DNA from: Escherichia coli
GTDB lineage: Bacteria > Pseudomonadota > Gammaproteobacteria > Enterobacterales > Enterobacteriaceae
Length of the DNA: 64,000 bases
Direction: 5' to 3' (one strand)
Assembly: GCF_003790525.1 (NCBI RefSeq)
Contig: NZ_CP033635.1
In this document: piece by piece, positions 51,003-51,401 of the stretch
Numbering within the stretch: the stretch's first letter is position 1
How the letters are laid out: every line of letters starts with the position of its first letter
Notes under the pieces: model-generated
Told to the model about the DNA's origin: nothing
The model's database searches: none
The model's input: only the letters and a program-made list of their open reading frames with translations
Translations under genes and position numbers: made by a program

Positions 51003-51401
51003 ATGGTATATCCTGTTAAGAAGATTAAACTGTAACCCCCCCTGAACAAGCAGGCGAGATTCTTTCCCAGGATACCTTTCAGAGTCACCACTGTATTGAT
51101 TTTAACAATCAATACTACTAACATGGGATTATAGGATAAATGCCCCCTGATAAAACAATATGAGCGTTCCTGTCACCATATGTCAGCAGAGCATTCAGAT
51201 ATAGCTGTCAGAATAACCGTTTCCTACATCAGTCATTCATCACAGACTCAATTGTGAATCAGTTCACCTTTTTGCAATTCCTTTATTGATCGAAAGCAGT
51301 TAATCACGGAAATTAATTACCGGAGTGAAAGCATTACTGCATAATAAATATAGATCCTTGCCCCCCTCTGACAGAATTTTCAGAGGGGTTTTTTATCAGT
51401 T

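Follow-up and report, generated by a model that had tools for sequence, protein, structure and literature searches.

A predicted intrinsic terminator facing against both of its neighbouring genes is, by its sequence, a recurrent landmark of the junction between tail and cargo genes in a family of lambdoid prophages. We analysed it in a 64-kb stretch of Escherichia coli DNA (the window), where it lies in a 399-bp gap (51003-51401) between the last gene of the late operon, tfa, and a YadA/Eib-like adhesin gene. The element is of an ordinary kind, and its orientation is unusual but explicable. On balance, it probably serves as a boundary terminator, which would keep leftward transcripts from extending, in antisense, over the late tail genes. 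The same position is occupied by reversed terminators with different stems downstream of other, diverged tfa genes, and it is this comparison between families, rather than the variation within any one of them, that argues for selection.

Genomic setting

The right-hand part of the window holds the right end of a lambdoid prophage that has inserted beside yecD (Table 1). The prophage ends at about position 47975, inside the ORF that follows yecD. Its right end truncates this ORF (~47880-47985), which RefSeq annotates in a near-identical genome as a partial hypothetical protein and which we take to be yecE, a known lambdoid integration site. The gap has a GC content of 38-40%, compared with about 50% in its flanks. 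It contains no credible ORF, the longest (41, 25 and 24 aa) being without support; RefSeq lists no feature for it in near-identical genomes, and a BLASTN search of the gap against 50,697 phage records gave zero matches. The whole gap is present in only 6 of 5426 complete E. coli genomes, and its tfa-proximal 150 bp in 370 of the 5426.

Table 1. Features at the right end of the prophage and in the gap between tfa and the adhesin gene (positions in the window)
Feature	Position	Strand	Remarks
DinI-like gene	48238..48486	+	SOS-box promoter; nearest plus-strand unit upstream of the terminator, 2.9 kb off
Small HTH protein, sigma-70 region-4-like	48869..49324	-	accompanies the adhesin gene; annotated beside YadA-like genes in relatives
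YadA/Eib-like trimeric autotransporter adhesin	49386..51002	-	cargo gene; YadA_anchor, E 1e-16
Adhesin leader/promoter region	51003..51252	-	AGGA ribosome-binding site just 5' of the ATG; specific to this YadA-like gene
CRP-like palindrome TGTGA-atcagt-TCACC (predicted)	51253..51268, centre 51260.5	.	one mismatch to TGTGA-N6-TCACA
66-nt block	51270..51335	.	near-invariant in relatives; sole variable base 51308
Promoter candidate 1, TTGATC-17-GAAATT	51286-51291, 51309-51314	+	weak; within the 66-nt block
Promoter candidate 2, TTACCG-17-CATAAT	51317-51322, 51340-51345	+	weak; nearer the hairpin
Hypervariable AU-rich linker	51337..51362	.	type A in the window; unalignable types A, B and C in relatives
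Terminator hairpin	51363..51388	+	9-bp stem, 8-nt loop; intact in 22/22 distinct versions
T6 tract	51389..51394	+	U-tail; T6-T7 in every relative
tfa, tail-fibre-assembly gene (DUF4376)	51402..51977	-	PF14301, E 2e-20; last gene of the late operon; stop TGA 51402-51404
Collagen-repeat tail fibre gene	51992-53662	-	late operon
gpJ	53721-57626	-	late operon

The segment between tfa and the yecD-side junction has the properties of a prophage moron: it carries the YadA-like and sigma-region-4-like genes, has a regulatory region of its own and is low in GC. Cargo differs between otherwise identical tfa ends. The adhesin leader is unrelated to the matching region of most relatives and includes a promoter-like match on the minus strand (CTGACA-18-CATATT, 51186-51157). 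A 12-nt segment holding its ribosome-binding site is identical in Eib-type genes, and beyond this site no homology was found between the gap and Eib-type gaps. A literature search for descriptions of eib promoters or terminators returned nothing usable.

Several other features of this region were recorded. The adhesin gene contains 5.6 copies of a 99-bp tandem repeat (49808-50364; 98% identical, 33-aa units), the copy number of which varies among genomes, judging from annotated protein lengths in relatives. Between the stop of this gene and the start of the sigma-like gene, there is a GC-rich palindrome, CCCGGGGGAGTCCCCCCGGG (~49341-49362), which lacks a T-run on both strands; at the equivalent place in the P-EibC record, between eibC and orf-156C, the depositors annotated a stem-loop. 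The promoter of the DinI-like gene is near consensus (TTGACA-18-AAAAAT, 48173-48222) and is overlapped by two LexA-box-like sites (CTGT-N8-ACAG, 48178-48193 and 48207-48222). Within the late operon, a sense-oriented canonical terminator, GGGCGCCA-gaaa-TGGCGCC followed by T6 (53683-53702, minus strand), stands between the gpJ stop and the tail-fibre start and is presumably read through only by antiterminated polymerase.

A canonical terminator on the plus strand

A preliminary description of this DNA had placed a canonical intrinsic terminator on the plus strand at 51362-51395, opposite to both flanking genes, and our analysis agrees on both points. The stem arms, CCCCTCTGA (51363-51371) and TCAGAGGGG (51380-51388), enclose the loop CAGAATTT (51372-51379) and are followed directly, on the plus strand, by six T residues, while the YadA_anchor gene and tfa are both encoded on the minus strand. 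The hairpin begins 13 nt past the tfa stop, and the T6 tract ends 7 nt short of the tfa stop codon.

A consensus scan detected the element on the plus strand only, as a stem of 9 pairs (6 G-C) closed by a loop of 8 nt. These are features of Rho-independent terminators, namely a GC-rich stem (usually about 5-14 bp) with a short loop and an adjoining T tract. Folded alone, the hairpin has an energy of -15.7 kcal/mol (z = -4.1), and none of 200 shuffled sequences (0/200) was equally stable; the minus-strand fold of the same hairpin reaches -15.8 kcal/mol. The strands were compared with a terminator score that combines stem energy with tail composition, using the formula of d'Aubenton-Carafa et al. 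(1990). The score was +26 for the plus strand versus -58 for the minus strand, with tail scores of 4.66 and 0.03, respectively. Viewed on the minus strand, an A6 run lies ahead of the hairpin, between the tfa stop and the stem, and the sequence after it, GGCAAGGAUCUAUAU (also given as GGCAAGGAUC), has no U tract. The hairpin does not have the two-sided arrangement of a bidirectional terminator either: the plus strand upstream of it reads GATCCTTGCC, and the minus-strand tail is GGCAAGGA, the one with the near-zero tail score. By sequence criteria, this is an intrinsic terminator of canonical form, predicted to stop plus-strand transcription alone.

We estimated the chance background from about 300 kb of the window and related phage DNA. 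Under a looser, home-made definition, terminator-like sites occurred there at 0.23 per kb per strand, which corresponds to an expectation of about 0.09 sites in the gap on one strand and about 1% for any given 50-nt slot. Chance is excluded by the recurrence, described below, of unrelated hairpin sequences at the same position.

Variation within the hairpin family of the window

Copies from E. coli, IMG/VR and metagenomes were aligned, yielding 22 distinct versions. Across them, hardly any change is seen in the hairpin, the T-run or the final ~100 nt of tfa. Within the hairpin, only the loop and the basal pair vary, and the remaining eight pairs are unchanged throughout. The basal position shows all four combinations (C-G, C/T, A-T and A/G); an apparent compensatory change from C-G to A-T, at first suggestive of covariation, was dropped once more variants had revealed the full set. 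Next to the hairpin, the linker is hypervariable, type C being ~23 nt longer. A minus-strand promoter-like sequence overlapping the hairpin (CTGTCA-16-TATATT) was considered as the cargo promoter and rejected, as it is not conserved in linker types B and C.

On the far side of the linker, the 66-nt block is as invariant as the adjoining non-functional remnants of tfa and of a transposase. Its invariance may therefore reflect recent spread rather than constraint, and we gave it little weight as a sign of constraint. Left of the block is a diverged stretch that includes the CRP-like palindrome, and left of ~51215 the window is unrelated to most relatives. In one locus (L057), the left flank of the window is joined to linker type C.

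The cargo beside the shared terminator may be the YadA-like gene of the window, another YadA-like gene, an Eib pseudogene or only a convergent ykgJ-like gene. A decayed prophage end is also found as a widespread chromosomal island beside PTS/transketolase genes (L005, L006 and ~25 metagenome loci, e.g. L059-L083). There, only the final 80-100 nt or so of tfa are left, joined to a fragment of an IS transposase; next come the terminator, the block, a ykgJ remnant and the YadA-like and sigma-like genes, and all copies share one common truncation point. Since the downstream cargo varies and the island copies keep the hairpin, the terminator travels with the tfa 3' end and not with the autotransporter. 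Within this family, no genuine covariation was seen, and the support for selection comes from the comparison between families.

Recurrence after other tfa genes

Tfa homologues with 55-65% identity were taken from IMG/VR, and their 3' flanks were compared. The 16 distinct downstream sequences form about eight types: five families with a reversed hairpin, one type that is sense or bidirectional (L012) and two with none. The five families have different stems (window and L056; L009; L010; L011 and L039; L014 and L027), those outside the family of the window being GGGGGTGA..TCACCCCC, AGGGGC..GCCCCT, AGGGGAGC..GCTCCCCT and ATGGGGGA..TCCCCCAT. All five sit directly past the tfa stop codon, and all five, read in the tfa sense, consist of a GC-rich hairpin with A5-7 immediately ahead of it and no T-run behind it, so that each was scored as a terminator of the antisense strand only. 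The gene that follows is mostly co-oriented with tfa and encodes a YadA/Eib-like protein, a 541-563 aa protein or an MFS-like protein. The next gene is likewise co-oriented in the complete phage genome PhiR5_1 and in the P-EibC fragment.

Reversed terminators often come in tandem, with three in L010, two in PhiR5_1, two in L011 and, in the L002 type, two named T1 and T2. Where they lie between tfa and the adhesin gene, they are spaced 70-180 nt apart (L010, 3596-3913; L089, that is, PhiR5_1, 4578-4724; L011, 3438-3520). Some of them follow apparent remnants of gene 3' ends, which suggests that they are scars of serial module exchange. Such remnants are also seen in L056-type gaps, which keep part of the 3' end of the ykgJ-like gene. 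In L022, the reversed terminator lies ~130 nt past the stop of a convergent ykgJ-like gene; it is the only terminator there, and no co-oriented cargo is present.

That hairpin, T-run and orientation have been kept in five families with fully rewritten stems would be hard to explain without selection. The feature is missing or decayed in two or three of the Tfa downstream types (L021, L051 and P-EibC), so it is dispensable.

A probable boundary terminator of the late operon

We infer that termination occurs at the hairpin and that it benefits the phage. The hairpin and its T6 tract would mark where the late (tail) operon meets the accessory right arm, releasing leftward RNA 7 nt before the tfa stop codon, with the result that no antisense RNA would be made over tfa, the tail fibre gene and gpJ. 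This RNA could arise from divergent or spurious initiation within the AT-rich promoter region of the adhesin, from polymerases running past the end of the SOS-controlled dinI-like gene, or from host transcription entering from yecD. Early leftward transcripts are a further candidate, once excision has joined int and att to the right arm; because int lies outside the window, this source is taken from the canonical lambdoid map. Polymerases of the late operon, travelling in the opposite direction, would find no U tract behind the hairpin and go on to transcribe the adhesin gene, and the hairpin may additionally protect the late mRNA at its 3' end.

The terminator would have served a convergent ykgJ-like gene in ancestors or relatives, and in relatives lacking the adhesin cargo it is placed to end such a gene or to back up its end. 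It looks orphaned in the window because the co-oriented module of adhesin and regulator now lies between it and the remaining plus-strand gene. The tandem arrangement of reversed terminators suits a role as a fail-safe against processive polymerases. Phage development can be blocked by RNA antisense to prophage structural genes, as with STnc6030 (PMC7067206), and given this precedent, keeping antisense RNA out of the tail genes is plausibly valuable.

Certain observations speak against a boundary terminator. Within 2.9 kb upstream in the window there is no plus-strand gene, and the dinI-like gene has a hairpin of its own. A single intrinsic terminator would largely be ignored by antiterminated early transcripts. 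The hairpin is also kept in islands without tail genes, which pure protection of tail genes does not predict unless these remnants are recent.

If the element does act as a boundary terminator, a small general rule would follow: the late tail operon of this lambdoid prophage family would be closed by a terminator facing inward from the outside. A lysogen could then express Eib/YadA-like adhesins while making no antisense RNA across its tail genes, and late transcription would be free to continue into the cargo. For annotation, the succession of tfa stop, A-run and GC hairpin offers a landmark of the junction between tail and cargo modules.

A possible short RNA from the gap

The preliminary description had further suggested that the terminator could end a small or antisense RNA originating in the autotransporter promoter region. 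The structural part of that suggestion stands. As for the RNA, the gap holds two weak plus-strand promoter candidates (Table 1), both below the threshold of the scan, together with a CRP-like site, and the region has no Rfam match. We consider it doubtful that the terminator ends a dedicated ncRNA, of ~45-75 nt here and up to ~105 nt with linker type C, made from a weak and possibly CRP-dependent plus-strand promoter in the 66-nt block. Such an RNA might act in cis, antisense to late-operon read-through into the adhesin gene, or in trans, like the anti-sRNAs of other prophages.

The CRP-like palindrome is the sole match with at most one mismatch in the 64-kb window, chance predicting 2.1 per 64 kb and ~0.013 per 400 bp. 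By our own counting, its centre lies 61.5 nt ahead of the transcription start expected from candidate 1, which is class I spacing. In the diverged homologue of relatives (CGTGA-acaaga-TCACA), the half-sites are conserved despite a different spacer. Candidate 2 lies closer to the hairpin. In the L002 type, the ykgJ-like gene is already ended by a separate plus-strand terminator, T1, so that T1 and T2 enclose the CRP-like site, the block and the linker as if these formed a unit of their own. A 74-nt product would fold into a 5' stem-loop, a 22-nt AU-rich single strand and the terminator (z -2.9), a typical sRNA shape. There is also a precedent in the anti-sRNAs AsxR and AgvB, of 51-60 nt, which are antisense to the late transcript at another lambdoid moron site and have variable 5' parts (PMC4104026).

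Weighing against an RNA of this kind, the two promoters match only 7 and 8 of 12 positions (7/12 and 8/12) and were missed by the scan, and the -10 of candidate 2 is not conserved in linker types B and C. The part that would be transcribed includes the hypervariable linker, the least conserved part of the element, and the junk DNA beside the 66-nt block is just as invariant as the block itself. The other hairpin families have no consistent promoter-like site on the antisense strand upstream of their terminators, and the terminator accompanies the tfa 3' end whatever the cargo. No Rfam family (Rfam 15) was found on the plus strand of 51250-51400 at E <= 10, nor did a scan of 47000-54000 at the same cutoff return anything at the hairpin or in the gap. 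This wider scan gave an AgvB match at 52124-52184 (+), antisense within the tail fibre gene, that is most likely due to chance (18 bits versus a gathering score of 56; E = 9). Among the Hfq-bound sRNA peaks of EHEC Sakai that we examined, none maps to a tfa end. The Hfq-CRAC list for this strain (PMC4104026, supplement) was set aside as support, since EcOnc31/43 are in Sp5, which does not have a lambdoid tail, EcOnc22 is between tail genes I and J, and EcOnc47 is antisense to dinI.

CRP-like palindromes were also observed 260-280 nt upstream of the YadA/Eib-like start codon in six otherwise dissimilar gaps (window 51253-51268; L009-L012, L021 and L088). Their sequence and position hint at catabolite control of the YadA/Eib-like adhesin family. 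Such a constant distance from the ATG fits an element of the cargo promoter equally well as one of an RNA promoter.

We regard as unlikely the fuller proposal that the tfa-cargo junction encodes an undescribed short RNA with a CRP-dependent promoter in the 66-nt block, an end at the reversed terminator and a body (the linker) swapped among at least three unrelated versions. Were it true, this RNA would be a second class of antisense-oriented prophage sRNA beside AsxR/AgvB, might tune late-operon read-through into adhesin genes or target host RNAs, and would represent a new prophage sRNA locus in ~7% of complete E. coli genomes. A short RNA and a boundary terminator are compatible: both would hold for a divergent transcript that starts at a cargo promoter under CRP control and ends at the hairpin.

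Unlikely alternatives: a sense-strand function or a relic

The hairpin could instead act on the sense (minus) strand, stabilising the end of the late mRNA as a processing signal or a barrier to 3' exonucleases, or terminating weakly without a U tract, the T-run being incidental. It is, after all, equally stable on that strand and located immediately past the stop of the last late gene, and Q-antiterminated late transcripts of lambdoid phages need some 3' protection. The A5-7 run directly 5' of the hairpin in five families, however, would be useless to a barrier and exactly fits an antisense terminator; the sense tail score is close to zero, and the hairpin persists where the late operon is gone. 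We, therefore, judge a sense-strand function very unlikely.

It is similarly improbable that the hairpin is a functionless relic, formerly the terminator of a convergent accessory gene and by now a mere passenger of the tfa 3' end, a recombination joint of tail and cargo: the mosaic breakpoints on either side of the linker and at ~51270, the lack of a nearby plus-strand gene in the window, the very low divergence regionwide, junk included, and the loss or degradation of the hairpin in some relatives (L021 and P-EibC) would all fit, but without selection it is hard to see how a relic could have kept its hairpin, T-run and orientation in five families, mostly beside co-oriented cargo, while Tfa diverged to 55-65% identity and the stems were fully rewritten.

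Comparison with known systems

The element resembles E. coli Rho-independent terminators in its GC-rich 9-bp stem, short loop, immediate T6 tract and strongly strand-asymmetric score. Unlike these, it is at the 3' end of no gene on its own strand, both neighbours lying on the opposite one.

The OOP terminator of lambda is the textbook case of a reverse-facing terminator that ends a short antisense RNA. It is likewise an intrinsic terminator set between co-oriented phage genes, directed leftward between the rightward cII and O. OOP, however, is made from a defined promoter and extends over the 3' end of cII, whereas no convincing promoter was found here, and an overlap with tfa is impossible because the terminator stops 7 nt short of it. 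The operon-boundary terminators of lambda (tI/sib after int, and the tandem t'J in the b region) delimit long, partly antiterminated operons. They are comparable as phage terminators, sometimes in tandem, that bound operons near the b region, and they differ in position and sequence. The tfa gene of lambda itself was uninformative for comparison, as it belongs to a different Tfa family and its downstream hairpin has no T-run on either strand. OOP RNA is also mentioned in the report on STnc6030 (PMC7067206).

AsxR and AgvB (Rfam RF02702 and relatives) are short RNAs antisense to the late transcript, next to a moron, with an intrinsic terminator and a variable remainder (PMC4104026), features that an RNA from the gap would share. 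They differ in being located at the PR' moron site instead of the tail-fibre end, and neither their sequence nor their structure is matched here.

Similar in organisation are P-EibA and P-EibC from E. coli ECOR-9 (AF151091 and AF151674). In P-EibC, the hairpin after orf-191C is weakened, and the depositors annotated other stem-loops and not that one. These fragments share the gene order seen in the window: orf-191, a Tfa homologue with 57-59% identity, is separated by a gap from a YadA-like gene for immunoglobulin binding, and a small ORF resembling a regulator comes next.
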